This document shows positions 5,040 through 35,821 of a DNA stretch of 64,000 bases, in pieces. The position numbers and the translations under genes were made by a program. The DNA lies in assembly GCF_988243305.1 (NCBI RefSeq), contig NZ_OZ547136.1; one strand, written 5' to 3'. The notes below the pieces were generated by a model that worked only from the letters and a program-made list of their open reading frames with translations, was not told the DNA's origin and did no database searches. Each line of letters opens with the position of its first letter. The stretch's first letter is position 1.

Positions 5040-5043
5040 ATTT

Positions 5044-8516: not shown

Positions 8517-8525
8517 AAGATGTCC

Positions 8526-9299: not shown

Positions 9300-9303
9300 T
9301 CAC

Positions 9304-10650
9304 TTATCCCCTTATCGCCCAGAGCTGAAGGTTCAGATCGGGGAAGGTGCCGGAGATATGCAGCGCCAGCGCGCCCGCTTTTATCACGTCCTGCCAGGCT
9401 GGGGTGCCTTTTTCCAGTTCGAAGTAAACATAACCTTCATGCCAGGGCAACTGACGCGGCGCAGCGGTAAGCGTGTGCAGCGGAATACCCGGCACCTGCA
9501 CGCTGACCACGCTGCGGATTTTGTCGGTAGCGGCCACTTTCGACTGCTGGATGAACTGGCGCTGCACCTGGTCGTAGGGCATCCTGGCGCGCACTGCCAG
9601 TACCAGCTTGCAGGACTGCAACAGTGTGGGATCGCTGATGGTGGCGATCCAGGTCCCCTCTGAAAAGAACAGCGGCAGATTCTGCGCACGCGGTACCAGC
9701 ACGGTATTGAGTGCGCGCCGCAGTTCCGGAATTACTGTTCTGGTGAAGGTCGCGGTAAGATCCCGGTGATTATACGGCTCCACGGTGCAGGGCAGGCGAT
9801 TACCTTCGGTGAAGGTCATCAGTTCTCCCAGCAGCCCCACCAGATCCCGGTAGAAGGCTTCCGGATGCAGCGTGTGCAGTTGGGAACGATGCGTGAACTG
9901 CATTTGATGGCGGTTAAGCATCTGCAACATCATAAATTCGGCCACATCGGCGATCCCGCTCTGTTCAGGCGAACCGATGCGCCCGGCCAGGTCGGCGGCG
10001 CGGGTGGCAAGTAGCCCCTGCACCTCGCCGGAGAATGCCCCGAGCAACCCGCTGACACGGACGGCCTGAATGGTGGGAATAAAGGTGTTGTCCAGCACCA
10101 GTGCGCCGGTAGCATTTTTATTGAGGATACGGCACAGGGGGAGGGTCACCATCGCGCTGAGATCATCTGCGCCGCTGACTATCCTGGGGATCAACTGCCC
10201 CAGACCGACCGGCTGTTCGTCGCCTTCGTCAGTGTGAAAATCACGGACGCGGGTATGGGTGAGGCGGTAACGTTCCGTGCCCTGACCGGCGCTGTGCAAC
10301 CCCTGGATTTCATTGATCACGTCGCTGATTACAGGCAGTGCCAGATAAATATTGTGGCTCTCTTTCGATGAAAGGGTTCCCGGCTGGAAAGGTTCCGGCA
10401 GCAGATCCTGGTCGGGAATGCTGAATACGGTGCCGTCAGGCATACAGCCCGCCGCACGGTCAATCATGATTTTGCCCTGGGCAAGCAGTTCGGTATTGAT
10501 GGAGAGTTCTGTAAAGCCCCAGAAAAAATCACCCTGAGCATCCAGACGACGGGTCAGCAGGTACTCGCAGTGACGCTGCTGTTGCTGAAAATGCTGCGGC
10601 AGGGCAAACAGCCCTTCCTGCCAGATCACCTTGTTTTTCATTGTTGCCAT
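9304..10650 (-). CDS. tssK: T6SS baseplate protein TssK
   Basis: 448 aa; N-terminus VIWQEGLFALPQHFQQQ typical of TssK; start could instead be the ATG 9 nt downstream (MKNKV...). Confidence 0.85.
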   Translation of the reverse strand: MATMKNKVIWQEGLFALPQHFQQQQRHCEYLLTRRLDAQGDFFWGFTELSINTELLAQGKIMIDRAAGCMPDGTVFSIPDQDLLPEPFQPGTLSSKESHNIYLALPVISDVINEIQGLHSAGQGTERYRLTHTRVRDFHTDEGDEQPVGLGQLIPRIVSGADDLSAMVTLPLCRILNKNATGALVLDNTFIPTIQAVRVSGLLGAFSGEVQGLLATRAADLAGRIGSPEQSGIADVAEFMMLQMLNRHQMQFTHRSQLHTLHPEAFYRDLVGLLGELMTFTEGNRLPCTVEPYNHRDLTATFTRTVIPELRRALNTVLVPRAQNLPLFFSEGTWIATISDPTLLQSCKLVLAVRARMPYDQVQRQFIQQSKVAATDKIRSVVSVQVPGIPLHTLTAAPRQLPWHEGYVYFELEKGTPAWQDVIKAGALALHISGTFPDLNLQLWAIRG

Positions 10651-10652
10651 CG

Positions 10653-11177
10653 TCAGTTTTCCTCTTTTTTCATCTCAATCGCACTGGCGCGGATATGCAC
10701 CAGCAGGCGATAGTGGTGGCCGATACTTTCTACCGGCTCAATTTGTTTCCATTCTGTGGCCTGATCGTCTGAAAAATAGGCAATGACACCGATATAACCG
10801 GTTTTCTCATCCAGCTTGATCGGCGGCAGTGTTTTTACGGTGTCCGGCAACAGGTTGAAGTCCTGGTGATCGATATAGTTCTTCCCCAGCACGTCGGGCA
10901 GCGCGGTGGTGGCAATCTGATCGTAATCGGCGGCCTGGAATTTGGAGTCGTCGCTCAGATACACCAACTGGACATCCACCGGCGCGGCTTCGCCGTCCGC
11001 CGTCAGGTTGCTGTCCGGCTCGGTCAGCAGCGTGACGGTCAGTTCGGTTGACTGCTCCATCAGCTTTCCGACCTGAATATCCGGATTGCGGATCACTTGG
11101 CTGATTTTTTTCGCTGTTTCACAGCCAGTTAACACAACGCTCATCAGAACGCAGGCCAGAAACGCTTTGCCGTTCAT
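10653..11177 (-). CDS. tssJ: T6SS outer-membrane lipoprotein TssJ
   Basis: 174 aa; signal peptide with lipobox LTGC. Confidence 0.85.
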   Translation of the reverse strand: MNGKAFLACVLMSVVLTGCETAKKISQVIRNPDIQVGKLMEQSTELTVTLLTEPDSNLTADGEAAPVDVQLVYLSDDSKFQAADYDQIATTALPDVLGKNYIDHQDFNLLPDTVKTLPPIKLDEKTGYIGVIAYFSDDQATEWKQIEPVESIGHHYRLLVHIRASAIEMKKEEN

Positions 11178-12466
11178 GCTTCCGGCTCCCGCTGTTTTTC
11201 GCGCAGCACTCGGTCATAGACCTGGGCATAAACTTCATTGAACAGCATTTCAAATCCCTGCTGTCGGCTGGAGGCCAGTTCATCGTAATAGTTGCTGTAC
11301 ATCTGCCATGCCCAGGCGTTGTCCATTTTCTGGCGCAGCTCATGGCTGCGGCGGTATTGCGCAAAGCGGCGCATCAGGTTGCCCGGCGAGAAGGCGTCCA
11401 GCATGACACGCAACGCTTCCACAATCGCCGCCCGGTTGGCCTCTTCATGATGCCGGATGTTGCGCAGGCTTTCGGCGATGGCCGCAGGTGCTGCGAGATG
11501 TACCGGGCTTTTACCCTCGGCGAACATGACGTTCAGCGCGGTGGCATAGTCCATATCAAGGCGCAACGGGTTGTCTTCCAGTGGACGCAGGTGTTTATCC
11601 GACAGGCTGTTCTGTTGTTGTTGCAGACTCAGCAATCCCTTAATGGCGGCCTGCAACGCCCGTCCGGCCTCTTCGAGAAACTCATCCGCATCCTGAGAAT
11701 TGTGCAGCGTCAGCGGACACTCCATACCGCGCAGCAGCGGGGTTACGGCCAGGTGGTACTGCGCCATGGCAGAAAATTCATCGCCGTCCTCATGACGGGC
11801 ATTGCCGGGTGGCAGATCCATAAACGGCGTGTTGATCCCGTTTGCACCTGTCAGATCGGAGGCGGTGGCAACGGGCCGGGAAACGCGTGGGGCGATCGGA
11901 TCATCTGCCACCATCAGGCTTTCCGTCTGGAGTGCCTGGAGCGGATCGCTGGAAAAACCGTGCGCCACCGTGGGGGCAAGCTGATGCTGGAACGGCATTC
12001 CCGGATACGCCGGTTGTCCCTCGGTGGTCAACAGGGTGTCCGCCAGACTGTCGCGGTTCATTACAATCGTTTCCGGGGTCGCCATCCGCTCGTCATAGGT
12101 AACAGCTGCACCGTCATGCAGAAACACTTTCAGCGCCAGTGCGCCGAGCTGGATCTCATCCCCCTGGCGCAGGCGGATGAGCGCATCGGAAGAGACCGGG
12201 GCCAGATTAATCATCAGTCCCGGCGTCAGGCACCGCAGGCAATAGGCTCCGTCGTGCCGGATAACGGTACAGGCACGCGCAGCAATGCTTCCCGCCCGGT
12301 CCTGTACCTGCCAGTGACATTCCGGCGTATGGCCAATATCACCGCCGTTTTCGCTGAACAGGCATTTTGCGGCGCGTCCGCTTTCCAGTTCGTTGCCATT
12401 CATCACCTGTAAAGTCAGTGAGGCCTGGCGGGATTGCTGTTTTTCCTCAGCCATAAGTGGTTCCAT
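11174..12466 (-). CDS. tagH: T6SS-associated FHA-domain protein TagH (Fha)
   Basis: N-terminal FHA-like domain (...IGHTPECHWQVQD...CTVIRHDGAYCLRCL...GDEIQLGALALKV); ORF track start 12616 is probably too far upstream; preferred ATG at 12466 (MEPLMAEEKQQ) lies 5 nt from the tssG stop. Confidence 0.8.
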   Translation of the reverse strand: MEPLMAEEKQQSRQASLTLQVMNGNELESGRAAKCLFSENGGDIGHTPECHWQVQDRAGSIAARACTVIRHDGAYCLRCLTPGLMINLAPVSSDALIRLRQGDEIQLGALALKVFLHDGAAVTYDERMATPETIVMNRDSLADTLLTTEGQPAYPGMPFQHQLAPTVAHGFSSDPLQALQTESLMVADDPIAPRVSRPVATASDLTGANGINTPFMDLPPGNARHEDGDEFSAMAQYHLAVTPLLRGMECPLTLHNSQDADEFLEEAGRALQAAIKGLLSLQQQQNSLSDKHLRPLEDNPLRLDMDYATALNVMFAEGKSPVHLAAPAAIAESLRNIRHHEEANRAAIVEALRVMLDAFSPGNLMRRFAQYRRSHELRQKMDNAWAWQMYSNYYDELASSRQQGFEMLFNEVYAQVYDRVLREKQREPEA

Positions 12467-12470
12467 AGAA

Positions 12471-13520
12471 TTATTCCCTGATTCGGATTGTGATGGCGGG
12501 CGGTACTTTCGGCTGACCAATAAAGCTGGTTCTGCCGAGGCGGGAGCTGGCCGGATCGCCAAGGTGCATCCCTTTAGCCTGCTGTGGTGCCAGGCACAGC
12601 CGTAAATCCCAGGCAAACTGGTCGCGCAGAATAAAGGAAAGGAACATGGTCAGCGGCAGGTGATTTTCGCCATCGGGTAAAAATGAGAGATAACGCTCCC
12701 GCGACAGGCCGCCAATCTGCAACAGGAATTTTCCGCTGCGATCCGGCACCCGTGCGCCGAGGGTAAAATTAACGCCGAGTATGGAGCGTCCCGGAATATG
12801 TCCAGCCGTTTTTCCTTTCGGATTACGTACACCCAGCCGGTTCTGGTGTGCCGGATCAATGGCGACTTTACGCAGTTGCCAGCGTTCAATGGTGACATCC
12901 GGCAAATCAAAACAGTGCGACACAAGATTACAGATGACCTCCGGCGCGCGGCCTGGTGTTGCCAGAATTCCGGCGTAGGCCAGCATTTTGCTGTGGTTAA
13001 TGGCAAGCCTGTCACGCACGCTCTGATTACCCAGCCCGACCAGTGCGTACATGCGCTGTGAAAAGGTGTCAGTACCGCCGTTACGAAAGCAGATGTAGTA
13101 GCGGTATTTGCGCCAGGCATGATAGGCAAACTGTGTCCAGCGGTGGCTGAATAGATCGAGAAATTCTTTCAGGCCGTCTTCGTTCTGTGCGGACTCCTGC
13201 GCCATCTGATCCAGATAATAGCCCGGTAGCGGCGACTGGCTGCCGGAAAAACCCAGGAACCGGGTTTGCAGTACATACTGTCCGTTCTGGCTACGGGAAA
13301 GCGCACTCAGGTCCGTACCCGGAAAACCGATACTGGCGTCAGAGCTGAAACGCACGATCTCCCGGGCAGGCTCGGTACGCAGGGAAATGTCCTGGCCCGG
13401 CGTGCCATACCGACGGTACAGCGCCTCCATTAGCACATAGAAATTGCAGTTGCGCACATCCGCCGGTAACGGCGGTTTTGCCGCTATATCAGGGCGTGCT
13501 GGCCCATTTTCTCCTGCCAT
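12471..13520 (-). CDS. tssG: T6SS baseplate protein TssG
   Basis: 349 aa; operon position between tssF and tagH; the 37-nt overlap with tssF means the true start could be the internal ATG at 13430. Confidence 0.8.
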   Translation of the reverse strand: MAGENGPARPDIAAKPPLPADVRNCNFYVLMEALYRRYGTPGQDISLRTEPAREIVRFSSDASIGFPGTDLSALSRSQNGQYVLQTRFLGFSGSQSPLPGYYLDQMAQESAQNEDGLKEFLDLFSHRWTQFAYHAWRKYRYYICFRNGGTDTFSQRMYALVGLGNQSVRDRLAINHSKMLAYAGILATPGRAPEVICNLVSHCFDLPDVTIERWQLRKVAIDPAHQNRLGVRNPKGKTAGHIPGRSILGVNFTLGARVPDRSGKFLLQIGGLSRERYLSFLPDGENHLPLTMFLSFILRDQFAWDLRLCLAPQQAKGMHLGDPASSRLGRTSFIGQPKVPPAITIRIRE

Positions 13521-15343
13521 TCCCAGGACTCCTGACTTTCCGTGTTAATGATTTTCAGACAGTGATACGAATTGATGCTGGCGTAGAGGGCAAAAAAGTG
13601 CGAGAGCACGGTACCCAGAAGATAAATTTCACCTTCGCAGATAAACGGATCGGGACGTATCCACAGCGTGGTCGCCAGCCCGCGAACCGGTACGCCTTTA
13701 AACAACCTGTCAACAGGTTTGGTTTCGAGTTTTTCTATGGCATCCAGTTTCTGGCGTGACAGTCTGGCCCGCTGCGGATGGTGAGCACCCGGCAGGTCGA
13801 AGGTCCGCAGGATCTGGATCAGTGTCTCCCTGTCCAGCAGGGAGAGGTAGTTCAGGTTCATCGCGGAAATCAGCGACCAGTGCATGTCGCCGTCCGTGAC
13901 CGGCCAGAGCGGTTGTGTCGGGCGCGTAACATTATGAAATGAGGCCACCGCCGGGTTTTTGTTGACGGCCACGCAGATATCGCCGGTATGCAGCCGGGCA
14001 GGGATCATACGGTTGGTACAGATTAATGACGTGGTGATCACATCATCATTAAACCGTGAGCTGTCCGGAATGCTGCCGTCCGCATGGACAAAGGCGATGG
14101 AATGTTCAAGCCCATGGTGAAGCAGGGACGTTTTAGTCCGGTGATGCCAGTAGACGACTTCCCGCTGGCGGCTGTACTCCATCTGGTGCTGGAAACTTTC
14201 AAATTCGGGCCAGACACGCACCTGGCTGCCGGGGCTGGAATCAGTCCCTGAAACTTTGATTTTACTGGTGACTGTGCTGACCTGAAAAATGTCATAGGCG
14301 TCCGGATGCTTATGGCTGGCGCGCAGCGGGTATTCCGCCATCCGCCCATCCGGCCTGACGGGTTCCGCATAATGCGTAAACAGGTTAATGGCTGGCGTAC
14401 AGTGCAGACGCAGCGAATCCTGGCGCAGCTTGATGTCGGCAGGTAATGGGCGGTTAAAGTGCAGGCGCAGCGTAAACGCACTCACCGGGAAATCGTCTGG
14501 TAGCGGCGCAACATCGCGCAGATGGAAAAAGAAGAAGGCTTCGGGATAGCAGAAATACTCCTGAAGCACGCGGTAGCCGTTGTGGACATTTTTCGGCCAC
14601 GGCAGCAGGGCATCCTGGTTGTCAAAACCCGCAGCATCCAGCCACAGATCCGGCAGCGGCAGGCTGTGCTCTCCGGCAATCAGTTCCGCATCCATCAGGC
14701 ATTCGCAAAACCACAGATAAAGCTGGTGTCGGGTATAATCGTCTTCATTACCCAGCCAGAACGTGATTTTGTTCAGGTCAAGCATGGCGGGGGAGACATT
14801 GTTATCTGCGGTAAAACTGATATCTATGATGCCTTCTTTCAGACTGCTGGCGTTGCGGGTGTCGAGAATGCGCAGCGGTTGCAGCCAGATATCGCGCGCC
14901 AGCGTGAAATGGCAGGCTACGGAAGAAACGATTTTATCATGATTGTCAGCCAGCACCTTCTGAGCAGCCGGGGAGGACTTTTCTGATCGGCTTCTGATCA
15001 GTTCATTACGGCAGACCTGAACAGGGACTTTTAACTGATCGGTTTTGGGTTCATAGGCAATAACCGTCATGGCCGGAACCGGGCGTAAATAGTTTGCCCA
15101 CAGCATACGGATCAGCCCATGGGTGAATTCGGGAAATTCGTCTTCAAGTTTCTGGCGCAGGCTACCGGACATAAAGGCAAAGGCTTCCATCAGTCGCTCC
15201 ACATCCGGATCACCCTCTTTCTCGGCCAGAAAATGGGCCAGATGCGGTTTTTCCTGCGCCAACAGTTTGCCAAGCTGGCGCAGATAATCCAGTTCTTCGC
15301 GGTAGTAACGTTCTTCAAAAGCCACAGAGATCACTCCACACAA
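13484..15343 (-). CDS. tssF: T6SS baseplate protein TssF
   Basis: 619 aa; N-terminal EERYYREELDYLRQLG motif typical of TssF. Confidence 0.85.
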   Translation of the reverse strand: MCGVISVAFEERYYREELDYLRQLGKLLAQEKPHLAHFLAEKEGDPDVERLMEAFAFMSGSLRQKLEDEFPEFTHGLIRMLWANYLRPVPAMTVIAYEPKTDQLKVPVQVCRNELIRSRSEKSSPAAQKVLADNHDKIVSSVACHFTLARDIWLQPLRILDTRNASSLKEGIIDISFTADNNVSPAMLDLNKITFWLGNEDDYTRHQLYLWFCECLMDAELIAGEHSLPLPDLWLDAAGFDNQDALLPWPKNVHNGYRVLQEYFCYPEAFFFFHLRDVAPLPDDFPVSAFTLRLHFNRPLPADIKLRQDSLRLHCTPAINLFTHYAEPVRPDGRMAEYPLRASHKHPDAYDIFQVSTVTSKIKVSGTDSSPGSQVRVWPEFESFQHQMEYSRQREVVYWHHRTKTSLLHHGLEHSIAFVHADGSIPDSSRFNDDVITTSLICTNRMIPARLHTGDICVAVNKNPAVASFHNVTRPTQPLWPVTDGDMHWSLISAMNLNYLSLLDRETLIQILRTFDLPGAHHPQRARLSRQKLDAIEKLETKPVDRLFKGVPVRGLATTLWIRPDPFICEGEIYLLGTVLSHFFALYASINSYHCLKIINTESQESWEWQEKMGQHALI

Positions 15344-15756
15344 TAGCGTTGATGGTTGTCCAGCAAAATGTCAAATTCAAACACTCCCCTGGTCTCGCTG
15401 ACATCGATCGTAGCCACAATATGAAAACGCAGTTCCACAGGGGCGTATTCATCCGGTGCCGCAGCCGTAACAACAACATCGGTAATACGAGGTTCGTAAT
15501 GTAAAATGCACTGGCTAATGGACTTACGGATTTCTCGTCTGAAATCGCTGGAGGCCAGCGATTCATCATTTAAATCAGTAATCCCCAGCTCCGGTGAGCC
15601 ATAACAACTGCCGGAGCGGGTATTCAGGACCTGTCGCAGGTTACGTCTGATGGAACGTATCAGTGCTTCTTTTGGATTCTGATATGAAGGCGGATTTGCC
15701 GCCTCACGGATACGTTCAAAAAGACTGCCGGTTGGTCCTGAATCCCGTCTTTGCAC
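15331..15756 (-). CDS. tssE: T6SS baseplate protein TssE (gp25-like)
   Basis: 141 aa; gp25/GPW-like small baseplate protein downstream of tssC. Confidence 0.85.
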   Translation of the reverse strand: MQRRDSGPTGSLFERIREAANPPSYQNPKEALIRSIRRNLRQVLNTRSGSCYGSPELGITDLNDESLASSDFRREIRKSISQCILHYEPRITDVVVTAAAPDEYAPVELRFHIVATIDVSETRGVFEFDILLDNHQRYCVE

Positions 15757-15760
15757 CGGA

Positions 15761-17245
15761 TTATTCCTTATCCAGTCGTCCGACCAGGCTCAGGTCGAAA
15801 CTGGCACCCATGTATTTAAAATGCGGTCTGACAGAAATCGCGACCTGGTACCAGCCCGGCTCACCATCCACATCCAGTACCTCGATCTTAGCCTGACGCA
15901 AAGGCCGGTGGCTGCGGACTTCGGCAGGCGGATTTTCCTGGTCAGCAACATACTGGCGAATCCAGGTGTTCAGCTCACGCTCCAGGTCACTACGTTCTTT
16001 CCATGAGCCAAGCTGTTCGCGCTGAATTACCTTGATGTAATGCGCTAACCTGCTGATAACAAACAAGTATGGCAGCTGGGTGCCGAGTTTATAGTTGGTC
16101 TCCGCAGCCTTGCCTTCGGGGGTTTTGGGGAATGTTTTGGGTTTCTGCACCGAGTTGGCCGAGAAAAAGCACGCATTATCAGACCCTTTACGCATGGTCA
16201 GTGTGATAAAGCCCTCTTCCGCCAGCTCATACTCTCTCCGGTCAGTGATCAACACTTCAGTCGGAATTTTTGCCTGCATTTGCCCCATGGATTCATACAG
16301 ATGCACCGGGAGGTCTTTGACTGCGCCGCCGCTGGAAGGGCCAATAATATTTGGGCACCAGCGATACTTAGCAAAACTTTCCGCCAGGTTGGCGGCCAGT
16401 AAAAACGAGGTATTCCCCCACAGATAAGACTCATGACTCTGGCTGACATCTTCATGGTAACGGAAGGTTTTGACAGGGTTTTCATCCGGTGAGTAAGGGT
16501 GGCGCAGCAGGAACCGGGGGGCGGTCAGGCCCAGGTAACGGGAATCTTCCGATTCACGCAGGGCGCGCCAGCGGGAGTAGGCCGGGCCTTCAAAGATGGC
16601 ACCCGGTTCTTTGATCCCCGGTAACTCTGTCCATGAATCCAGACCGAAAAATTCGGATGATACTGACGACAGGAACGGGCTGTGCGCCATCGCGCTGACC
16701 TGGCTGATATATTTCAGCAACTTCATATCCGGCGTGGTGTTCTTAAAGGCAAAGTTGCCGATTACCGCCGCCACTGGCTCACCGCCAAATTGTCCGTAAC
16801 CGCTTGAATATACATGCTTGTAATACGCAGACTGCGTGATTTCAGGTGCAAATTCGAAATCATCCAGCAGTTCTTCCTGAGTGACATTCAGGAAATGGAC
16901 TTTGATGTTTTCCCGTGTATCCGCGCGTTCAACCAGCAGCTTCAGCGAGCGCAGCAGGGATTCCAGTTCCTGAAACTCCGGGGCATGAATAATGGCATCC
17001 ATCTGCCTGCTGGTTCGGGCATCAATATCAGCAATCATGGCGTCAACGGCCAGGATATTGATAGGTTCAGCGCTACTGTCGCCCTGTAACATGGCGGCAA
17101 TAAAGGCGCTCACGCCCTGGCGGGTGATATCGTAGCTTTCTGATTTAGGCTGGACGCGGGTTTGCGCCATGATTTCATCAAGCAGAGATGGGGGCGCGGC
17201 GGTTTGAGACGCGCTGACGGGAGCAATTTCTTCCTTTACTGACAT
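15761..17245 (-). CDS. tssC: T6SS contractile sheath large subunit TssC (VipB)
   Basis: 494 aa; size and sequence character of TssC; follows tssB. Confidence 0.9.
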   Translation of the reverse strand: MSVKEEIAPVSASQTAAPPSLLDEIMAQTRVQPKSESYDITRQGVSAFIAAMLQGDSSAEPINILAVDAMIADIDARTSRQMDAIIHAPEFQELESLLRSLKLLVERADTRENIKVHFLNVTQEELLDDFEFAPEITQSAYYKHVYSSGYGQFGGEPVAAVIGNFAFKNTTPDMKLLKYISQVSAMAHSPFLSSVSSEFFGLDSWTELPGIKEPGAIFEGPAYSRWRALRESEDSRYLGLTAPRFLLRHPYSPDENPVKTFRYHEDVSQSHESYLWGNTSFLLAANLAESFAKYRWCPNIIGPSSGGAVKDLPVHLYESMGQMQAKIPTEVLITDRREYELAEEGFITLTMRKGSDNACFFSANSVQKPKTFPKTPEGKAAETNYKLGTQLPYLFVISRLAHYIKVIQREQLGSWKERSDLERELNTWIRQYVADQENPPAEVRSHRPLRQAKIEVLDVDGEPGWYQVAISVRPHFKYMGASFDLSLVGRLDKE

Positions 17246-17267
17246 ACTGAAAATCCTTCTGTGAAAA

Positions 17268-17771
17268 TTATTTCTGAACGGCGATACCCAGTTCCTGGAT
17301 CAGCTGCTCGCGGCTGTCTTCGTTTTCCAGTAGCGCCTGAAGTTGTGCGCGGAAGGCCGGAATATTGCCTAGTGGAGACTTAAGTGCGACCAGTGCCTCA
17401 CGCAGCTCCAGCAGGCGCTTTATTTCCGGCACCTGACTGGCAATATGGTCAGGAGAAAGGTCATCCATAGATTTGACTTTCAGGTTGACGTACATTTGCT
17501 CATTGGGAGCGTCACTGAGTTCAGCCGGAACAACAAACTCCCGTTCAATGTCAGCTTCTGAAATGACTGCGTTGAGGTTATAGCGGTTGATAGCAATGGC
17601 AGTTCGCTCATCCAACGGCGTGTTATCTGGTTTCCCTTTCAGATTGCCGGTGATCAATAAATTCAGCGGCAATTCGATATCAGCAGCCACCCCATCAACT
17701 TTTGGTGTATACCGAACGCTGATTCTTTCTTTCGGCGCGACACTGCCGCCATTGTTGTTCATTTTGCTCAT
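17268..17771 (-). CDS. tssB: T6SS contractile sheath small subunit TssB (VipA)
   Basis: ORF track 17268..17822 starts at a TTG; preferred start is the ATG at 17771 (MSKMNNNGGSVAPKERISVRY...), giving about 167 aa; first gene of the operon. Confidence 0.85.
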   Translation of the reverse strand: MSKMNNNGGSVAPKERISVRYTPKVDGVAADIELPLNLLITGNLKGKPDNTPLDERTAIAINRYNLNAVISEADIEREFVVPAELSDAPNEQMYVNLKVKSMDDLSPDHIASQVPEIKRLLELREALVALKSPLGNIPAFRAQLQALLENEDSREQLIQELGIAVQK

Positions 17772-18474
17772 AAAAATGTTCCCGTTCAGGCCATGAGCAC
17801 AGCATTTTCGTACTGCATACAAATACCGACAATACCGTTTCAGTGGCAGTTAGATAATGTAACCTTCTTTCTGTTGTGATCGGTATTCTACTCATGAAAT
17901 AAAATATTAAAAGAACTATTTATATTTTTGAAAGAGATGTATCCTTCATTATTAATACATGATAGTGAAATCAATTTTGGTATTTATAGACTTGGTGAAT
18001 ATAATTTTACGGCCAATAAAGTGCAATAACACATTGATTTATATGTGTTTATTAAATTGATTAATAAGTTTTGTGTATGGTTTTATAAATTAGTTAATTG
18101 CTAGCAATACATCATAAGAAATTCCTTTAAGGAATATCTTAATTGCGTGCAGGAACGATGGTGAAGTAAGTGTTGTAATAATTTATTTTTGACGAAACTG
18201 TAGGTTTTTATGGGGATAAGGATACGTTATGGATAATTCTACTGTTGATGTTGATATATTTTTAGCTTATGTGACCGTGTTCTGAAATTGACTAAAAATA
18301 TATTTAAACACCATAAAAGAGTTTTTCGGTAGGTGCTAATTACGTGTGCCTGTAACTCGAATAAAGAAAAGGGTGTGGTTCCTGATGTGAGCCGCATCAC
18401 ACTCTAACCTGTCGGGGATTAACGACGGGTTGTTCGTAAAAACAGCAGTTGATAATTTCACAAGGAGTTCACAA
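17772..18474. promoter_or_regulatory. AT-rich divergent control region between tssB (minus) and hcp (plus)
   Basis: About 700 bp of non-coding, strongly AT-rich DNA between divergent operon starts; contains two short perfect or near-perfect palindromes at 18097-18108 and 18121-18135. Confidence 0.5.
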
Positions 18475-18993
18475 ATGCCAACCCCATGTTACATTTCTAT
18501 TACGGGCCAGACCCAGGGGAACATCACTGCCGGTGCTTTCACCGCGGATTCTGTCGGCAATATCTACGTGCAGGGGCACGAAGATGAAATGCTGGTGCAG
18601 GAGTTTTTGCACAACGTTACTGTTCCAACCGATCCGCAGTCTGGCCAGCCTTCCGGCCAGCGCGCGCACAAACCGTTCATTTTCACCGTGGCGCTGAACA
18701 AAGCCGTTCCGCTGCTGTACAACGCGCTGGCCTCCGGTGAAATGCTGCCGAAAGTGGAGCTGCACTGGTGGCGTACTTCAGTTGAAGGCAAGCAGGAGCA
18801 CTACTTCACCACACGTCTTACTGACGCGACGATTGTGGACATGAACCTGCACATGCCGCACTGCCAGGACCCTGCACAGCGTGAGTTTACGCAATTGCTC
18901 GCAGTATCACTGGCATACCGTAAGGTTGAGTGGGAGCACATCAAATCCGGTACTTCTGGTGCCGATGACTGGCGTGCACCGCTGGAAGCATAA
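18475..18993 (+). CDS. hcp: T6SS inner tube protein Hcp (TssD)
   Basis: ATG at 18475 (MPTPCYISITGQTQGNITAGAF...) preceded by AAGGAG 7 nt upstream; 172 aa; ORF track start 18430 is an upstream TTG. Confidence 0.9.
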   Translation: MPTPCYISITGQTQGNITAGAFTADSVGNIYVQGHEDEMLVQEFLHNVTVPTDPQSGQPSGQRAHKPFIFTVALNKAVPLLYNALASGEMLPKVELHWWRTSVEGKQEHYFTTRLTDATIVDMNLHMPHCQDPAQREFTQLLAVSLAYRKVEWEHIKSGTSGADDWRAPLEA

Positions 18994-19004
18994 ATCTGAG
19001 TCAA

Positions 19005-19038
19005 CAACATCCTGCCTTCGTGCAGGATGTTGTTTTTG
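19005..19038 (+). terminator. Rho-independent terminator/attenuator between hcp and vgrG
   Basis: 11-bp perfect stem (CAACATCCTGC / GCAGGATGTTG) with a 6-nt loop, followed by TTTTT, 12 nt after the hcp stop. Confidence 0.6.
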
Positions 19039-19213
19039 TACGTGTAAAAAATGAGTGTCAGTAAGGAGTTACGCTTTCATGAGGGAGATGGCGGATGCCG
19101 GAAACCCGGGCGGTAGCGTACCTGAAAATGTAAAGATGAGTGTAACGCTGCACTGGCACCCTTTGCTGCATGGTGAGAATCATTTGGTCCGTGAATAAAT
19201 CAGGGGGGTCATT

Positions 19214-21196
19214 ATGTCCTTAAAAGGTCTGCGCTTTACGCTGGAGGTTGACGGCCAGGAGCCGGACACCTTTGCAGTGGTGAATTTCAGGTTAATCCAG
19301 AACCAGTCATATCCGTTTGTGATGAGTGTGGATGTTGCCAGCGACTCTTTTATGCAGACGGCGGAGATGCTGCTGGAGAAGAAGGCGACACTGACCATCT
19401 GGCAGGGCGCAGTGGCGCAGCGTTATGTCACCGGCGTGGTGGCGGGTTTTGGCATGCAGGAGAATAACGGCTGGCAGATGCGTTATCACCTGCGTATTGA
19501 GCCGCCGTTATGGCGGTGCGGGCTGCGGCAGAACTTCCGTATCTTCCAGCAGCAGGATATCCGGACGATATCGGCCACGTTACTGAACGAGAACGGCGTC
19601 ACGGAGTGGACGCCGCTGTTTTATGAGGACCATCCGGCGCGGGAGTTCTGTGTCCAGTACGGGGAGTCGGACCTGGCGTTTCTGTCCCGGCTGTGGGCGG
19701 AGGAGGGAATTTTCTTCTTTGAGCGGTTTGCGGCGGACAGTCCGGAGCAGAAGCTGACGCTGTGCGACGATGTGGCGGGGCTGTCACAGGCGGGAGAGCT
19801 TCCGTTTAACCCGGACACATCGACAGGAGCGGAGACGGAGTGTGTCAGTATGTTCCGTTATGAGGCGCATGTCCGCCCGTCGTCGGTGCAGAGCCAGGAT
19901 TACACGTTTAAGGTGCCGGACTGGCCGGGGATGTATGAGCAGCAGGGTGAGAACCTGAACGGACAGCTGGCGCAGTATGAGATATTTGATTATCCGGGAA
20001 GGTTCAAGGACGAGCAGCACGGCAAGGATTTCACGCTGTACCAGATGGGCAGCCTGCGCAGTGATGCGGAAAAGGCCACAGGGCAGAGTAATTCACCGAA
20101 GCTGTGGCCGGGAACGCAGTTTACGCTGACGGGGCATCCGCAGAAGATGCTGAACCGTGAATGGCAGGTGGTACAGAGCATACTGTCAGGAAGCCAGCCG
20201 CAGGCGCTGCACGGCAGCCAGGGGAGAGGAACCACGCTGGGAAATCAGTTAGAGGTGATACCGGCAGACCGGACGTGGCGTCCACGGCTGCAAAGCAAAC
20301 CGAAGGTGGACGGGCCACAGAGCGCCATTGTCACCGGGCCTGCGGGAGAGGAAATCTTCTGCGACGAACATGGCCGGGTACGGGTGAAGTTCCACTGGGA
20401 CCGTTATCACGGGATGACGGAGGCGAGTTCATGCTGGGTGCGGGTATCGCAGGCGTGGGCGGGGCCGGGTTTCGGCAATCTGGCGATACCGCGGGTGGGT
20501 CAGGAGGTGATTGTTGATTTCCTGAACGGCGACCCGGACCAGCCGATAATCATGGGACGGACATACCATGAGGACAACCGTTCGCCGGGGAGTCTGCCGG
20601 GGACGAAGACGCAGATGACGATACGGTCGAAGACCTATAAAGGAAGCGGATTTAACGAACTGCGCTTTGAGGACGCCACAGATAAGGAACAGGTCTATAT
20701 TCACGCGCAGAAGAACATGGATACGGAAGTGCTGAATGACCGGACGACGGACGTGAAGCATGACCACACGGAAACCATTGGTAACGACCAGAAGATAACG
20801 GTGGGGTTGGGCCAGACGGTGAATGTGGGGAGCAAAAAGGAAGGTGGTCATGACCAGAAAGTGACGGTAGCGAACGATCAGCATCTCACGATAAAAAATG
20901 ACCGGCACAAGGTTGTAAATAACAACCAGACAAGCAAGGTGACGGGAACTGATACCGAAGAAGTCGTCAAAAAACAGAGTATTAAAATAGGTGATAATTA
21001 CGAACTGAAAGTTGAGCATGGTACAAAAATCATATCTGGGGACAGTATTGAGCTAATTTGTGGGCAGGGAGAGAGCGGGACTTGTTCCATAAAACTGGAG
21101 AAAACAGGAAAGATAATAATACGGGGGACGGAGTTTCTATTTGAGGCTACCGGTCCTGTAGATATTAAAGGAAAAGATATTCATCTGAACGGATAG
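19214..21196 (+). CDS. vgrG: T6SS spike protein VgrG (TssI), no C-terminal effector extension
   Basis: 660 aa; gp27/gp5-like organisation ending in beta-helix repeats; GGGGGG-type ribosome-binding site upstream. Confidence 0.9.
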   Translation: MSLKGLRFTLEVDGQEPDTFAVVNFRLIQNQSYPFVMSVDVASDSFMQTAEMLLEKKATLTIWQGAVAQRYVTGVVAGFGMQENNGWQMRYHLRIEPPLWRCGLRQNFRIFQQQDIRTISATLLNENGVTEWTPLFYEDHPAREFCVQYGESDLAFLSRLWAEEGIFFFERFAADSPEQKLTLCDDVAGLSQAGELPFNPDTSTGAETECVSMFRYEAHVRPSSVQSQDYTFKVPDWPGMYEQQGENLNGQLAQYEIFDYPGRFKDEQHGKDFTLYQMGSLRSDAEKATGQSNSPKLWPGTQFTLTGHPQKMLNREWQVVQSILSGSQPQALHGSQGRGTTLGNQLEVIPADRTWRPRLQSKPKVDGPQSAIVTGPAGEEIFCDEHGRVRVKFHWDRYHGMTEASSCWVRVSQAWAGPGFGNLAIPRVGQEVIVDFLNGDPDQPIIMGRTYHEDNRSPGSLPGTKTQMTIRSKTYKGSGFNELRFEDATDKEQVYIHAQKNMDTEVLNDRTTDVKHDHTETIGNDQKITVGLGQTVNVGSKKEGGHDQKVTVANDQHLTIKNDRHKVVNNNQTSKVTGTDTEEVVKKQSIKIGDNYELKVEHGTKIISGDSIELICGQGESGTCSIKLEKTGKIIIRGTEFLFEATGPVDIKGKDIHLNG

Positions 21197-21302: not shown

Positions 21303-22349
21303 ATGATAGAAATGAAAAATAACACACCATTTCCTTTGTTGTCATTTGAAAAATATGGTCGTTATGGTCTTTTGTTTGATGTTATTGCTATTAAAATGTC
21401 ATTGCGAATTAAAAATGGATTTTATGCTGATCTTGCTGAGTTTCAAAAAGAATTGTCCATGTCTGATGAATACTATGGGGAGTCTGAAACAAGTAGTCTA
21501 AAATCTGAAACAGACTTAGTTCTTTGTAAAAGAAATACAGATATTCACGTGACAGGTAGTGCTCATGCCCCTCCAGGGGATAAGTCTAAGTGGAAGGCTT
21601 GTGTGAGGGTTAATAGTTTTTCTAAAGAACTGAGTTTATCTGGTGTCCGCTACTTACAATATGAGCGAAATCGTTGGCAGATGAGCTTACCAGATAAAAT
21701 TATTAATGTTCCTCTACGCTATGAGCTTGCTTACGGTGGTATTTGGCAACCAGATGGTATGGAGAAATTGGTTTTTTCAGCAAACCCTGTAGGTTGTGGA
21801 TATTATCCTGATATTTCTCAACTTAATACAAGTTGTCAATATAAACTCCCACAAATAACCAGCTCTGCTTTGTCAGAAAACGCTACCATTTTTAATGGGG
21901 AATCTGACTTTTTTCAAGGTGTTGGCCCTGTATCTCGATGGTGGAAAAGTCGCCTCCAGTATGCAGGAACCTACAATGAAGTATGGCGTGAAAAGCGCTA
22001 TCCCTATTTGCCGGATGATTTTGATGAGCGGTTCTACAATAGTGCTCATCCGGATATGATATACACGGGGTTTCTCTCTGGCGATGAAAACATCTCTCTT
22101 GAAGGTTTTTTTAAATTTGAACAGGTTGTTAAGACAAAATTGCCAGGTATACGACCTGTACTTATATTAAAAACCAAGCATAATACATCACATATGTTCT
22201 TACCTGTTGCGGATACAATGGTTATCGATTTAAGTCGACAGGAAATATACCTTACCTGGAGATTAACAATACCTGATTTTTTTGGAATGAAAGAAGGAGT
22301 GCTGAGTTGTATTATTCCTGAATGTATAGGGAAAAAATATTATGGGTAA
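21303..22349 (+). CDS. T6SS adaptor-like protein (DUF2169-type suspected from context and size)
   Basis: 348-aa AT-rich ORF immediately downstream of vgrG; 8-nt overlap with the following PAAR-like gene; the family call rests on genomic context, not on a motif I can verify. Confidence 0.45.
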   Translation: MIEMKNNTPFPLLSFEKYGRYGLLFDVIAIKMSLRIKNGFYADLAEFQKELSMSDEYYGESETSSLKSETDLVLCKRNTDIHVTGSAHAPPGDKSKWKACVRVNSFSKELSLSGVRYLQYERNRWQMSLPDKIINVPLRYELAYGGIWQPDGMEKLVFSANPVGCGYYPDISQLNTSCQYKLPQITSSALSENATIFNGESDFFQGVGPVSRWWKSRLQYAGTYNEVWREKRYPYLPDDFDERFYNSAHPDMIYTGFLSGDENISLEGFFKFEQVVKTKLPGIRPVLILKTKHNTSHMFLPVADTMVIDLSRQEIYLTWRLTIPDFFGMKEGVLSCIIPECIGKKYYG

Positions 22350-23382
22350 CTATCATATCGGGGATGGTGAATGTAGATTTAGAGTCGTGTGTTCTTCACC
22401 AGATGTATGTGAAGTAGGAGGTTACAAGGTTCCTTTTGACAGTTACCAGACTTTAGATAGTGAAAGACAGTACAGTTCAACGGTATGGGCGCGTGGATGC
22501 AGAGCTTTAAATGTTGGTTCAGTGATTGCTGGAACTCAAAGTAATGCCGGTAAAGGTGTCATATCCGGTACATCTCAAGGAACGGGTGACTGTGTTATTT
22601 TAACGGGAAGTCCGACTGTAACAATAGAAGGGAAACCTGTTGCTTATCATGGTTCAGTTGTTGGGATTAATAACCATAACTGCCTTGGTAAATTGTATAC
22701 CAAAATAAAATCACCAATGATTTCTGTCATTGATAAAACTTTTAGTTATGAAAGGACTGCTGAAGTAATACACGATTTACTGCTTCTGAAGGATCTCCTT
22801 TCTGTTGGGAATATTTTGGGCGGAGATATTTCACCTGAGGTTAAAAATGATTTATTTCAAATAAAAGATCCTGACCAATCATGGGGGGAGTTTTTTTCAA
22901 TAAAGAATATCAGAGAATCTCTCAGGAATGGTATTGAAGGAGATAAATCTCAGATCAGAGAATGGTTTGGAGAGAACACACTTACTCAAATGGGCAATGG
23001 AGCAATCACCACTTTACATGGTGTGGCGGATTTAGCCTTAGTTACATTCGATGCTCTGTTAGATACGGCAACGGCAACGGTTGCTTGCCCGATAGGCGAA
23101 GATGGGTTATGTGAACAGGCAAATATAAATTTAAATGAAAAAGAACAGGCTTTATTTAATATTAGTAATTCATTGATAAATGGGCAAGCATGGGATGCAC
23201 TTAAAAAAATGATAATGGATACAAATAATGGTGATCAGATTGCTCTGGAGCATTTTGCCAGCTTTTTATGGGGCTTTATGATACCCGCAAAAATACCAGA
23301 AGAAAATATCTCTGGGAAAGTATTTGTAGAGCCAGTAGTTTTAGAAGGTGGTGCTGGTGGCAATTGGACAGTATTTGATTAG
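22342..23382 (+). CDS. PAAR-like (DUF4150-type) T6SS spike-tip protein with C-terminal extension
   Basis: N-terminus CRFRVVCSSPDVCEVGGYKVPFDSY...GDCVILTGSPTVTIEGKPVAYHGSVV resembles PAAR-like DUF4150 domains; 346 aa; ends at a TAG that is in frame with the next ORF. Confidence 0.65.
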   Translation: MGNYHIGDGECRFRVVCSSPDVCEVGGYKVPFDSYQTLDSERQYSSTVWARGCRALNVGSVIAGTQSNAGKGVISGTSQGTGDCVILTGSPTVTIEGKPVAYHGSVVGINNHNCLGKLYTKIKSPMISVIDKTFSYERTAEVIHDLLLLKDLLSVGNILGGDISPEVKNDLFQIKDPDQSWGEFFSIKNIRESLRNGIEGDKSQIREWFGENTLTQMGNGAITTLHGVADLALVTFDALLDTATATVACPIGEDGLCEQANINLNEKEQALFNISNSLINGQAWDALKKMIMDTNNGDQIALEHFASFLWGFMIPAKIPEENISGKVFVEPVVLEGGAGGNWTVFD

Positions 23383-23409
23383 GTTTTAGATTCAAATGTA
23401 ATAAAGCAA

Positions 23410-23781
23410 TTGACTTTAACAGGCTGTGGAGCGGCCTGTGGGGAAATGTTGCTTAGGGATAGGTATATTTTTGTCACGCAAAATGTAATTGGAACAGAAT
23501 TAACATCTATGACGTCGCTGGCAAACAAGCTTAATAAATTTGATGTCGGCTGGGAAGGGAATGAAGTGAGCGAATCTAGTTTATATGCCCTCAGTAATAC
23601 TGGTTCATGGGGAGCAATGATGTGGGATTCTGGAAGTAAAGTAGGGCATTGGGTACTTGTTAAGGGTGTTGATGATGCTGGGAATGTGATAATATATGAT
23701 CCATATCAAGGGAGTCGATATCTGATGACTGAACAGGAATTTAAGGAGGTATGGAATGGGCATAGTGTTTACAAACCATAA
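23410..23781 (+). CDS. Papain-fold (C39-like) cysteine peptidase domain, candidate toxin domain; possibly the 3' part of a disrupted PAAR-toxin fusion
   Basis: Candidate catalytic motifs CGAACGEM (Cys), GHWVLVKG (His), IIYDPYQG (Asp); same reading frame as 22342..23382 with only one TAG between them; ORF-track start is a TTG. Confidence 0.5.
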   Translation: MTLTGCGAACGEMLLRDRYIFVTQNVIGTELTSMTSLANKLNKFDVGWEGNEVSESSLYALSNTGSWGAMMWDSGSKVGHWVLVKGVDDAGNVIIYDPYQGSRYLMTEQEFKEVWNGHSVYKP

Positions 23782-24046
23782 TATTGATTTGTTATCGGTT
23801 GAATTTGATGAGATTACAAAAAATTGTAATTACACTTTTAGTGTAGATGGAGAGACGGCTATCTTTACTGCTAGAATATCAATAATAAGAAATATAAAGG
23901 GAATTAAATATAGCGAAGAACTTGATAAATTTATAATGTCAATAATGCCATTGCAGCCTAAAGTATCAAAAATTTTGGGAGGTGTTACTTGGGATTGTAT
24001 TTGTGGTAAGGAAGTTGGATTTCCTGTGAGATTAATTGGTAAGTGA
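23756..24046 (+). CDS. Small protein, candidate cognate immunity protein
   Basis: 96-aa ORF whose ATG overlaps the last 26 nt of the peptidase-domain ORF; no signal peptide; AT-rich. Confidence 0.35.
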   Translation: MGIVFTNHNIDLLSVEFDEITKNCNYTFSVDGETAIFTARISIIRNIKGIKYSEELDKFIMSIMPLQPKVSKILGGVTWDCICGKEVGFPVRLIGK

Positions 24047-24303: not shown

Positions 24304-25250
24304 ATGGAACTTAAAAAATTGATGGAACATATTTCTGTTATCCCCGATTACAGGCAAGCCTGGAAAGTGGAACATAAATTGCCAGATATTCTATCTGTTA
24401 ACTATTTGCGCCGTTATTTCTGGTGCATAAGGCTGGGAAGATATAGAGGATTTGGGGAAACACATCTCGATTTTTTGAAGTGATATGGTGATTTTGAAAA
24501 TGGTATTCCTGTTCACGATATCATTGCCAGAGTTGTATCCTGTATCAGTCCTGCAAAATTTTACGAGTGCTTTATTAACTGGATGCGTGACTGTCATTCT
24601 TCAGATGATAAAGACATCATCGCAATTGATGGAAAAACGCTCCGGCACTCTTATGATAAAAGTCGTCAAAAGGGAGCAATTTATGTCATTAAAATCCGTC
24701 TTCATATTGTTTGCATGTCTCTGATGAATTTATTGATTTTACGTTTGAATGGAAAGGGCTGAAGAAATTATGCATGGCAGTCTCATTTCGCTCAATAATA
24801 GCAGAACAAAAGAAAAATCCCGAAATGACGGTCAGATATTATAGCATTTCTGCTGATTTAACCGCAGAGAAGTTCGCCACAGCGAACCGAAATCACTGGC
24901 AAGTGGAGAATAAATTGCACTGGCATCTGGACGTGGTAATGAATAAAGACGACTTCAAAATAAGAAGAGGAAATGCAGCAGAATTATTTTCAGGGATACG
25001 GAAGATCGCTATTAATATTTTAACGAAAGATAAGATAATCAAGGCAGGGGCAAGATGTAAGATGTGAAAAGCAGCTGCGGACAGAGACTACCTCGCGTCA
25101 GTCCTTGCGGGGGCGGGCTTTCGTAATCTTGTTCTGCAAGGGATGATAAAAAGTGCAACTTTATTCCACGCAGCTATTTAGACAGCGTACAGTAAACAAA
25201 CGAAAGTTGTTATTTCAATGGTCAGGGCAAGAGCATGAAGTGTTTACTAC
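24304..25250 (+). mobile_element. Degenerate ISAs1-family (H-repeat) element with disrupted transposase
   Basis: N-terminus [26 protein letters not shown]... and C-terminal fragment ...[27 protein letters not shown]...[17 protein letters not shown]... match the ISAs1/H-repeat transposase from memory; frameshifts and an internal deletion are evident; right boundary approximate. Confidence 0.7.
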
Positions 25251-26409: not shown

Positions 26410-26612
26410 ATTTTGAAAATGGTAATCCTGTTCACGACACCATAATTAGAGTTATGTCTTGTATCCGTTCAGTATAATTTCACGAATGCTTTATTAACTG
26501 GATGCGAGATTGCCATTCATCAAATGATAAAGACGTCATCGCAATTGATGGAAAAGCGCTTCCACACTCCTATGATAAAAGTGGTCGCAGGAGAGCGGGC
26601 TTTCGTAGTCAT
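26410..26612 (+). mobile_element. Second, shorter ISAs1 (H-repeat) transposase remnant
   Basis: About 180 bp at roughly 85% identity to 24491-24672 (encodes ...FENGNPVHDT...[29 protein letters not shown]...), joined directly to H-repeat 3'-end-like sequence (GGGCTTTCGTA). Confidence 0.6.
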
Positions 26613-26648
26613 ACCCCGACTCTCCCCAGCCCTAAACACAACCCCCAC

Positions 26649-27419
26649 TCACCACAACCTAAACTCATCCGCATCCCGCCATGCCGGAAACTTTTCTCTA
26701 TACTCCCGCAACGCCATCATCGACAGCTCCGCATCAATGCGCGTTGCCTGATGCGCGTCGGCAGTAGCGATAATCTCGCCTTGCGGATTAATCACCCGGC
26801 TGTCACCACGATAATGGCAGCCGTTGCCATCGCTGCCGACGCGATTGCATCCCGCCACATACGCCTGATTCTCAATCGCGCGGGCTGTCAGCAATGCCTG
26901 CCAGTGCAGAGAGCGCGGAGCAGGCCAGTTGGCGACGTACAGGGCGAGGTCATAATCGTTGAGATTGCGCGACCACACCGGAAAACGTAAGTCGTAGCAC
27001 ACCAGCGGCAAAATACGCCAGCCGCGCCATTCCACAATCACTCGCGCATTGCCCGCTTTATAATGTAGATGCTCATCTGCCATGCGGAACAGATGACGCT
27101 TATCATAAAAATGTACCGTGCCGCCCGGCTCAACCAGCAAAAAGCGGTTAACCGAACCAGACTCCGTTTGTAATGCAACACTGCCTGCAATCAGCGCATT
27201 GCACTGCTGCGCTTTGGCTGTCATCCAGTTCACTACGTCATCTTGTGCTAGCGACGAAGCTGCCGCTTCCATGGCAAAGCCGCTGGTAAACATCTCCGGT
27301 AGAACGATCACATCGCGTCCGGTAATACCTTCCAGTTGACGATCAAAATGACGCAGGTTGGCAGGACCATCCATCCACACCAGTGGTTGCTGCAAAAGCG
27401 TAATCTTCAAACCAGGCAC
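26649..27419 (-). CDS. yafV: Omega-amidase (nitrilase-family C-N hydrolase) YafV
   Basis: Protein matches E. coli YafV as recalled; ORF track start 27428; probable start 9 nt downstream. Confidence 0.85.
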
Positions 27420-34081: not shown

Positions 34082-35821
34082 TCAACTCAACGCCCCCATA
34101 ATCTTCAACTCCAGCTCGTCCGGCACTTCGTTATACGACAGCACATGCAGCCCCGGCGCAAACAACCTTGCATAACGCGCCAGCAAAGGACGCAACTGCG
34201 GCGGCACCAGCAGCACCGGGTCTTTCCCCGCCGCTTTCATCTGCTCTTTTACCTGCGGCATCGTACTCTGGAACTGGTTGAGCATATTCGGATCGACCGG
34301 CACGCTGTCGAGCATCACTTTCCCGCCCTGTTGCGCCTGATTCACCACGTTGGTCAGCAGATTTTCCAGTTCATTATTCAGCGTATACACCGCCAGCTCC
34401 TGCTTGCGAACGAACGGATGGGTAATGCTGCGCCGCAATGCCAGGCGCACATCGGCCGCCAGCAGGATATGATCTTTGGTCACTGTGCTACTGGCGACCA
34501 GCACGGTGGCGATGGTGACGATATCGCGCAGGGAAACGCCTTCGGTCAGCAGCGCCCGGTACACTTTCAACAACTGGCTGTAATTGAGTGCCGCGCTCAA
34601 ATCTTCCGCCAGCCGTGGTGCCATCGATGACAGGCGATTGTGTAACTGCGTGATGTCGTCATAGTTAAACAAATCAGGAATATAGCTGCGCACAATCTTG
34701 TTCACATGGGTGGCAATCACGCTGGCGCTGTCGATCACCTGATACCCCATATTCAGCGCCTTCGCCTTCTGCGCGGGCTGGATCCAGGTGACCGGCATCC
34801 CGTACGCCGGGTCGTTCCCCAGCACGCCGTCTATCTCGCCGTAGGTTTCGCTGGAGGGCAGCGCCATCAGTTTATCCGCCGGAATATCCGCTTCATCGGC
34901 CTTAATGCCGTTGATGAATATGGCGTACTGGCTGGGCTTGAGGCGGAAGTTTTCCCGAATGCGGATCTCCGGCAGCAGCACGCCGTTGCCGTCAGAAATC
35001 ACCTGCCGCACGCCGCGAATTCGCTGGGTGAGCGGGTTGCCCTGTGCTTTGTCCACCAACGCCACCAGCTTGTAGCCGAGACTTAAACTGATAGGCTCGA
35101 TCAGCGGAATGGTTTCCCAACTGACCTGTTGCTCGCTGGTTTCGGTGATAGTCCGGGTCAGCGTTTCGAGGCTTTTCTCTTCTGCCTCCGCCGCCTGCGG
35201 GCGTTTGCTCATCCGCCAGCCGGTAAAACCCAACAGGGCGCTGAACAGCAAAAACGGCAGATGCGGCATCCCCGGCACCACCGCCAGCACAAACATGATC
35301 CCGGTGGCGGTGTAGAGCACCGACGGGCTTGCCAGCAGCTGGTGGCGCACGTCATGGGCGATATCGCCGTTGTCGCTGACGCGGGTGACGATAATTGCCG
35401 CCGCGGTGGAGAGCAGCAGGGACGGGATCTGCGCCACCAGGCCGTCGCCGATGGTCATCAGCACATATTGCTGGAAGGCGGCATCGGCGCTCAGGTTGTA
35501 TTTGAAGATCCCGATACAGACGCCGCCGATCAGGTTGATCGCCAGAATCATCATCCCGGCGATGGCGTCCCCGCGCACAAACTTCGATGCCCCGTCCATT
35601 GCGCCGTAGAAATCAGCCTCGCTGGCAACATCTTTACGCCGGGTTTGCGCCTGCGCCTGGTTGATCAACCCGGCGTTAAGATCGGCGTCAATCGCCATCT
35701 GTTTGCCGGGCATCGCGTCCAGGGTAAAGCGGGCAGAAACCTCGGAAATACGCTCGGCCCCTTTGGTGACGACAATAAAGTTGATTGTCAACAGCGTCAG
35801 TAAATCCGAGCGTGAAAGCAT
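34082..35821 (-). pseudogene. lfhA: lfhA: 5'-truncated Flag-2 flhA homologue (promoterless fragment)
   Basis: 579-aa ORF homologous to FlhA from about residue 110 onward (...FIVVTKGAERISEVSARFTLDAMPGKQMAIDADLNAG...); lacks the FlhA N-terminal transmembrane region. Confidence 0.75.

Follow-up and report, generated by a model that had tools for sequence, protein, structure and literature searches.

A lineage-specific nonsense codon interrupts the T6SS-1 effector gene cpe1 of Escherichia coli upstream of an intact cpi1 immunity gene

The cpe1-cpi1 locus and its closest relatives

Cpe1 and Cpi1 of E. coli ATCC 11775 are a papain-like cysteine protease delivered by the type VI secretion system (T6SS) and its immunity protein (PLoS Biol 2025, PMC12136450; PDB 9L5U). 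Cpe1 cuts GyrB and ParE at double-glycine motifs, its toxin domain (Cpe1tox) is toxic, and the change C362A abolishes toxicity (PMC12136450). Cpi1 neutralises Cpe1 via a hydrophobic exosite that comprises L387, M390, A408, M426, W428 and V434 (PMC12136450). PLCP toxins have been described both as fusions to a carrier and as separate downstream genes (PMC12136450). Homologous toxin domains are found in the CdiA-CT papain-like protease toxins (PDB 8SSK, 8SSM and 12AJ; E about 1e-50 to 1e-54), where the likeness spans the N-terminal GGAGGNW.V.DE segment and the Q-x5-C motif. Those toxins are intact and are delivered by CdiA in contact-dependent inhibition (CDI), whereas Cpe1 has a PAAR-like T6SS carrier. 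The C39 double-glycine peptidase domains of ABC transporters (ComA, LahT, CvaB) have weak sequence similarity and are transporter-fused housekeeping leader-peptide proteases, not secreted toxins.

Here we describe a cpe1 locus in a window of 64,000 nucleotides, the whole stretch of DNA that was analysed (contig NZ_OZ547136.1 of assembly GCF_988243305.1). The region is E. coli chromosome and holds the T6SS-1 cluster adjoining yafV/ivy/fadE. Window positions 4601-20520 are 99.97% identical to the sister genome NY1601, and the NY1601 annotation was carried onto the window for tssA, vasI, tssH, dotU, tssK, tssJ, tagH, tssG, tssF, tssE, tssC, tssB and hcp. The open reading frames (ORFs) of the window cluster have the lengths of the annotated genes, and the whole T6SS cluster is still open. 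The effector module and its upstream neighbours contain the following features.

18475-18993, plus strand: hcp/tssD, T6SS tube protein, 5' of the effector module (ORF list; NY1601 annotation at 99.97% identity)
19214-21196, plus strand: vgrG/tssI, 660 aa, intact in the window (ORF list; annotated tssI in L001, a locus that carries the same TAG)
21303-22349, plus strand: DUF2169 T6SS accessory (adaptor) gene (ORF list; PF09937)
22342-23781, plus strand: cpe1, frame of 479 codons, pseudogene through E347* (sequence comparison; PMC12136450)
22384-22686, plus strand: PAAR-like domain (Tox-PAAR-like/DUF4150), residues 15-115, kept in the 346-aa product (PF13665, E=1.4e-11)
23347-23781, plus strand: papain-like cysteine protease domain (Cpe1tox, about residues 336-479; PDB 9L5U, Peptidase_C39 and homologue alignment)
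23756-24046, plus strand: cpi1 immunity gene, 96 aa, intact, with its own strong Shine-Dalgarno sequence (SD) (product identical to WP_000513317.1, annotated Cpi1)

On sequence comparison we identify the interrupted gene at 22342-23781 as cpe1, the PAAR-like/papain-like cysteine protease effector of E. coli T6SS-1. When the two halves of the frame are joined, the protein matches Pfam Tox-PAAR-like (DUF4150, PF13665) at residues 15-115 and Peptidase_C39 at residues 352-474 (E=7.9e-6), and its toxin domain matches PDB 9L5U with E=1.4e-95. The domain plan is that of ATCC 11775 Cpe1, with a PAAR-like N-terminus and a C39/papain-like C-terminus. The published numbering also fits the window, in which C362 is TGT at 23425-23427, the first Cys codon of the peptide TGCGAAC. 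The T6SS context of cpe1 is present upstream (hcp, vgrG and the DUF2169 adaptor gene), and VgrG is the spike expected to carry Cpe1. The DUF2169 gene overlaps the start of cpe1 by 8 nt (22342-22349); cpi1, directly downstream, overlaps the end of cpe1 by 26 nt (23756-23781). These overlaps suggest translational coupling in the intact operon.

The ATCC 11775 locus (NZ_CP033092.2) has the same order, hcp-vgrG-DUF2169-cpe1-cpi1, next to yafV/ivy/fadE. We found only 10 nt differences from it over the 1,705 nt of cpe1-cpi1, and Cpi1 is identical. Four of these differences are synonymous, four are missense changes that are conservative or lie in the linker (R132K, N135S, F159L, D160G), and the remaining two are E347*, which precedes the catalytic residues, and A408E in the exosite. 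In newer RefSeq records the intact gene is called cpe1 (cysteine protease effector protein Cpe1) and its downstream neighbour cpi1. NCBIfam release 20 holds no Cpe1 or Cpi1 HMM, and none of its models matches even the intact ATCC 11775 protein; the RefSeq names are probably assigned by some other rule.

Several further observations concern the surrounding DNA. Between cpi1 and yafV the window carries ISAs1-family transposase remnants, frameshifted and with internal stops (24304-25067 and 26502-26700), which flank two small hypothetical genes and a gene for a DUF2859 'integrating conjugative element protein'. The same remnants occur in strains with intact cpe1. The alignment with NY1601 ends after about 35785, where NY1601 has a full second flagellar cluster of the Flag-2 type (flhA, flhB, fliR etc.). 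At about 34082-35821 the window has only a 579-aa ORF at the position of NY1601 flhA, which suggests that the Flag-2-type cluster has been deleted in this strain. A consensus scan for promoters and terminators gave 21 promoter-like sites (12.8 +/- 3.5 are expected in AT-rich DNA), one of them a 10/12 match at 23255-23282, and was uninformative on an internal cpi1 promoter.

Codon 347 is an inherited, clonal nonsense mutation

The sequence-only reading had noted a single in-frame TAG that splits two ORFs. The sequence, the ORF list and the translation all bear this out. The frame 22342-23781 (1,440 nt, 479 codons) has exactly one internal stop, TAG at codon 347, and ORFs 22342..23382 (346 aa) and 23410..23781 (123 aa) lie in the same frame. 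After the TAG at 23380-23382 come, as had been described, nine in-frame sense codons, GTT TTA GAT TCA AAT GTA ATA AAG CAA (VLDSNVIKQ, 23383-23409), followed by TTG at 23410. Since intact cpe1 genes match the entire 1,440-nt frame at 99.4% identity, the sharing of one frame by the two ORFs is not due to chance. The PAAR-like and papain-like/C39 domains are encoded in one frame, which the TAG interrupts, so that a single polypeptide with both is not expected.

The comparison with related genomes that had been proposed for this codon was run. An 81-mer with GAG at codon 347 was found exactly in 324 of the 332 complete E. coli genomes that carry the segment, and the corresponding TAG 81-mer in two of the 332. 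The intact loci of E10, ATCC 11775 and YP3 have GAG (Glu) at this codon within one 479-aa gene, annotated Cpe1 or PAAR-like, and more distant homologues have Glu at position 347 wherever it is covered. The word-indexed homologue search returned 13 proteins, enough to judge the conservation of E347, Q356 and C362 and the stand-alone architectures though not to survey the family. Because intact loci and homologues have GAG or Glu here, the stop is a derived G>T substitution at 23380, and the proposal that a PAAR-toxin fusion had been inactivated by a nonsense mutation is upheld. The two lineage-specific changes of the toxin domain are listed here.

23380-23382, plus strand: premature TAG at codon 347 (GAG, Glu, before the G>T change at 23380)
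23563-23565, plus strand: codon 408 GAA (Glu) in place of GCA (Ala), giving A408E in the hydrophobic exosite by GCA>GAA at 23564; linked to the TAG

The TAG allele is found in many assemblies. The exact 346-aa product is present on 185 public contigs (462 index blocks). We examined 11 other TAG loci (L001 and L005-L014, one of them a metagenome scaffold), and none has a mismatch to the window over the 1,705 nt of cpe1-cpi1. The two complete RefSeq genomes with the TAG come from different countries and hosts. The window itself is an assembly distinct from NY1601, since vgrG is intact in the window and interrupted by an insertion sequence (IS) in NY1601. Around the invariant cpe1-cpi1 segment the TAG loci vary: hcp together with an intact vgrG in some, vgrG disrupted by an IS in one and truncated in another, and a PAAR gene beside vgrG in some. 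The TAG allele is older than these secondary rearrangements on the vgrG side, and cpe1-cpi1 has had no substitutions since the allele arose. With zero divergence in the TAG lineage, there is no evolutionary signal either way on constraint of the two halves.

As to individual loci, vgrG of NY1601 is split by ISEc31, an IS3-family element (L005, 15919-17177), at a point that corresponds to about 20517-20520 of the window. The truncated vgrG is that of L011, and the loci with a PAAR gene (L008-L010) also have different genes 5' of vgrG.

A sequencing or assembly error at 23380 had been offered as one explanation of the stop, and the window does differ from the majority allele by one base only. 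However, the same base is present in the two complete RefSeq genomes and in nine further loci, including the metagenome scaffold, and the exact product recurs on the 185 contigs. The change is a base replacement rather than a miscounted homopolymer, and it is always linked to the second substitution, A408E. We therefore give an error at this base practically no chance; on comparison of independent assemblies, the TAG is an inherited, clonal nonsense mutation.

A408E is present in all TAG loci, and among the complete genomes only in the same two that have the TAG. A408 is named among the exosite residues and was not mutated in the published work (PMC12136450). A charged residue at this position may plausibly weaken the binding of both substrate and Cpi1. 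Both E347* and A408E are G:C>T:A transversions.

Effect of the stop on the toxin domain and downstream starts

The TAG had been placed between the PAAR-like protein and the peptidase domain. That there is a single stop is correct, but it does not separate the two domains. The crystallised toxin domain (PDB 9L5U) begins ...AGGNWTVFDE, and the CdiA-CT homologues (8SSK, 8SSM, 12AJ) begin at GGAGGNW.V.DE. As position 347 falls after the start of both the crystal construct and these homologues, the stop is about 11 residues into the toxin domain and not in the linker. Stand-alone cyanobacterial homologues of 173-181 aa also contain the segment that includes position 347. The positions that matter for any product made from the downstream part are as follows.

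23407-23409, plus strand: Gln356 codon, predicted oxyanion-hole residue, 6 residues before Cys362 (at least 90% conserved; papain/CvaB spacing)
23410-23412, plus strand: TTG (Leu357), the start used by the ORF lister, first in-frame start after the stop, without SD (anti-SD duplex -0.1 kcal/mol)
23425-23427, plus strand: catalytic Cys362 codon (C362A non-toxic, PMC12136450; numbering checked)
23446-23448, plus strand: ATG (Met369), the RefSeq/PGAP start of the 111-aa 'C39 domain-containing protein' WP_240089701.1, 3' of the catalytic Cys
23647-23649, plus strand: His436 codon, putative catalytic His (invariant alignment column H101)
23698-23700, plus strand: Asp453 codon, putative catalytic Asp (invariant alignment column D118)

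The TAG precedes every catalytic residue: the frame 3' of the stop still has the codons for Q356, C362, H436 and D453, none of which is expected to be translated. In the homologue alignment conservation is at least 90% at Q356 and at C362, and H436 and D453 stand in invariant columns. These columns point to His436 and Asp453 as the likely catalytic His and Asp. The Gln-x5-Cys spacing equals that of papain Gln19/Cys25 and of CvaB Gln26/Cys32, and CvaB Gln26 mutants are inactive (PMC3335142). By this family analogy and its conservation, Q356 is predicted to form the oxyanion hole; the paper on Cpe1 mentions neither 'oxyanion' nor Q356, H436 or D453 (PMC12136450). The earlier argument that this Gln lies 5' of the TTG at 23410, so that no complete catalytic domain can come from that start alone, holds up.

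We found that the TTG at 23410 pairs with the anti-SD at -0.1 kcal/mol, against -13.4 for cpi1, -10.9 for vgrG and -5.9 for cpe1. Since the TTG lacks an SD, a restart there is unlikely. A product from this codon would be without Gln356 and the first approximately 20 residues of the fold. Any start from ATG 23446 onward would leave out the nucleophile; the 111-aa WP_240089701.1 is without it because Met369 lies after Cys362. A downstream fragment would also lack the PAAR-like module for spike attachment and so would presumably not be delivered, and inside the cell it would probably be neutralised by Cpi1. The locus is not expected to yield a functional stand-alone protease.

Taken together, we assign a probability of about 0.93 to the reading that a lineage-specific nonsense mutation has made cpe1 of the window a pseudogene of a known effector and that its immunity gene has been kept. 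Intact Cpe1 rides on VgrG, aided by the neighbouring DUF2169 adaptor, and kills rivals by cleaving GyrB and ParE. In the lineage of the window a single G>T transversion turned codon 347 from GAG (Glu) into TAG. Translation would then stop after residue 346 and yield the PAAR-like domain and linker with no toxin, and a cell with the TAG would no longer deliver Cpe1. With cpi1 intact and preceded by a strong ribosome-binding site, the strain is probably still protected against Cpe1-armed relatives. The outcome would be the usual state in which the toxin is lost and the immunity kept. A408E and the secondary vgrG damage in sister genomes fit a decaying module. The premature stop would leave about 370 nt 5' of cpi1 free of ribosomes, and Rho-dependent polarity could lower cpi1 expression.

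Alternative readings and recurrent loss of cpe1

Low-level read-through of the TAG had been suggested, and a functional form of it would have UAG decoded rarely, yet often enough to matter biologically, so that a little full-length PAAR-toxin is made. All stop codons leak slightly, basal UAG read-through being typically far below 1%, and the downstream frame is fully open and otherwise nearly wild-type. However, a recent mutation with zero divergence would leave the frame open in any case, and the allele also has A408E in a functionally important surface. Nor is the stop conserved as a recoding site would be: GAG is found in 324 and TAG in two of the 332 complete genomes, and distant homologues have Glu. 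The gln tRNA cluster of the sister genome NY1601 has only the anticodons TTG, TTG and CTG, with no CUA tRNA-Gln that would act as a supE-type suppressor. The only tRNA in the window is tRNA-Thr(CGT), which leaves no suppressor tRNA there. A probe for the supE-type tRNA-Gln(CUA) matched 155 genomes, and the 60 matches listed all look like K-12 laboratory derivatives, which served as a positive control. We observed no sign of programmed read-through at the TAG and no positive support for it, and consider functional suppression very unlikely. In the NY1601 cluster (L015, 20231-20629) we counted two tRNA-Gln(UUG) and one tRNA-Gln(CUG); K-12 has two of each. A frameshift that bypasses the stop was dismissed, as two compensating shifts would be required and there is no hint of any.

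The locus might instead consist of two functional genes, a 346-aa carrier and a protease translated separately from TTG 23410 or nearby. RefSeq annotates two coding sequences here, in some other species the PLCP toxin has its own downstream gene (PMC12136450), and the stand-alone homologues of 173-181 aa exist. Those homologues, however, begin 5' of the GAGGxWxVxDE segment and contain the Gln, while in the window the first in-frame start beyond the stop lies 3' of Gln356. The weak anti-SD pairing of the TTG and the loss of the nucleophile from the PGAP start at M369 argue further against it, and the split architecture is found only in the TAG clone. We regard this arrangement as extremely improbable. 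The truncation could also be adaptive rather than neutral decay. The 346-aa remnant would then act as a toxin-less spike tip that lets a T6SS-1 intact in other respects go on firing other cargo and avoids the cost of Cpe1 or self-intoxication, with Cpi1 kept for defence and possibly a trace of toxin from UAG read-through. We hold this to be unlikely. The lineage-specific pseudogene remains the preferred reading, and the window gene is a pseudogene of the Cpe1 family, not a functional member of it.

The cpe1 gene has also been lost elsewhere. In CU37RT-2 (L003, 1261-3347) an IS3 insertion lies in the PAAR-like region together with an independent E325* (TAA), and cpi1 is intact. In O145 strains (L004, RM9872, about 2999-3167) a deletion fuses a truncated vgrG to the last approximately 170 codons of cpe1, again with cpi1 intact. 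The 90% protein cluster contains several other truncated forms on Mb-scale contigs. The Cpi1 protein is identical in every locus examined. Degraded effectors with retained ('orphan') immunity genes in T6SS and CDI loci have the same pattern, an inactivated toxin gene beside intact immunity. Unlike the lesions of such degraded loci, that of the window is one clean nonsense codon; the remainder of the frame is open, as is the whole T6SS cluster.

The literature already covers the effector with its structure, targets and immunity mechanism, and the split is already visible in RefSeq. The TAG allele is an ordinary loss-of-function allele and a case of ordinary gene decay. Its significance is mainly practical, and it raises no new question on translation or toxin biology. 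In RefSeq the locus appears as WP_240089697.1 ('PAAR-like domain-containing protein') plus WP_240089701.1 ('cysteine peptidase family C39 domain-containing protein'), both entered as ordinary proteins, and one pseudogene flag would be better. In predictions of T6SS competition phenotypes, strains of the clone should count as negative for Cpe1 and positive for Cpi1. Together with the CU37RT-2 and O145 lesions, the TAG allele shows repeated loss of cpe1 with cpi1 kept, as is expected for interbacterial toxin-immunity pairs.
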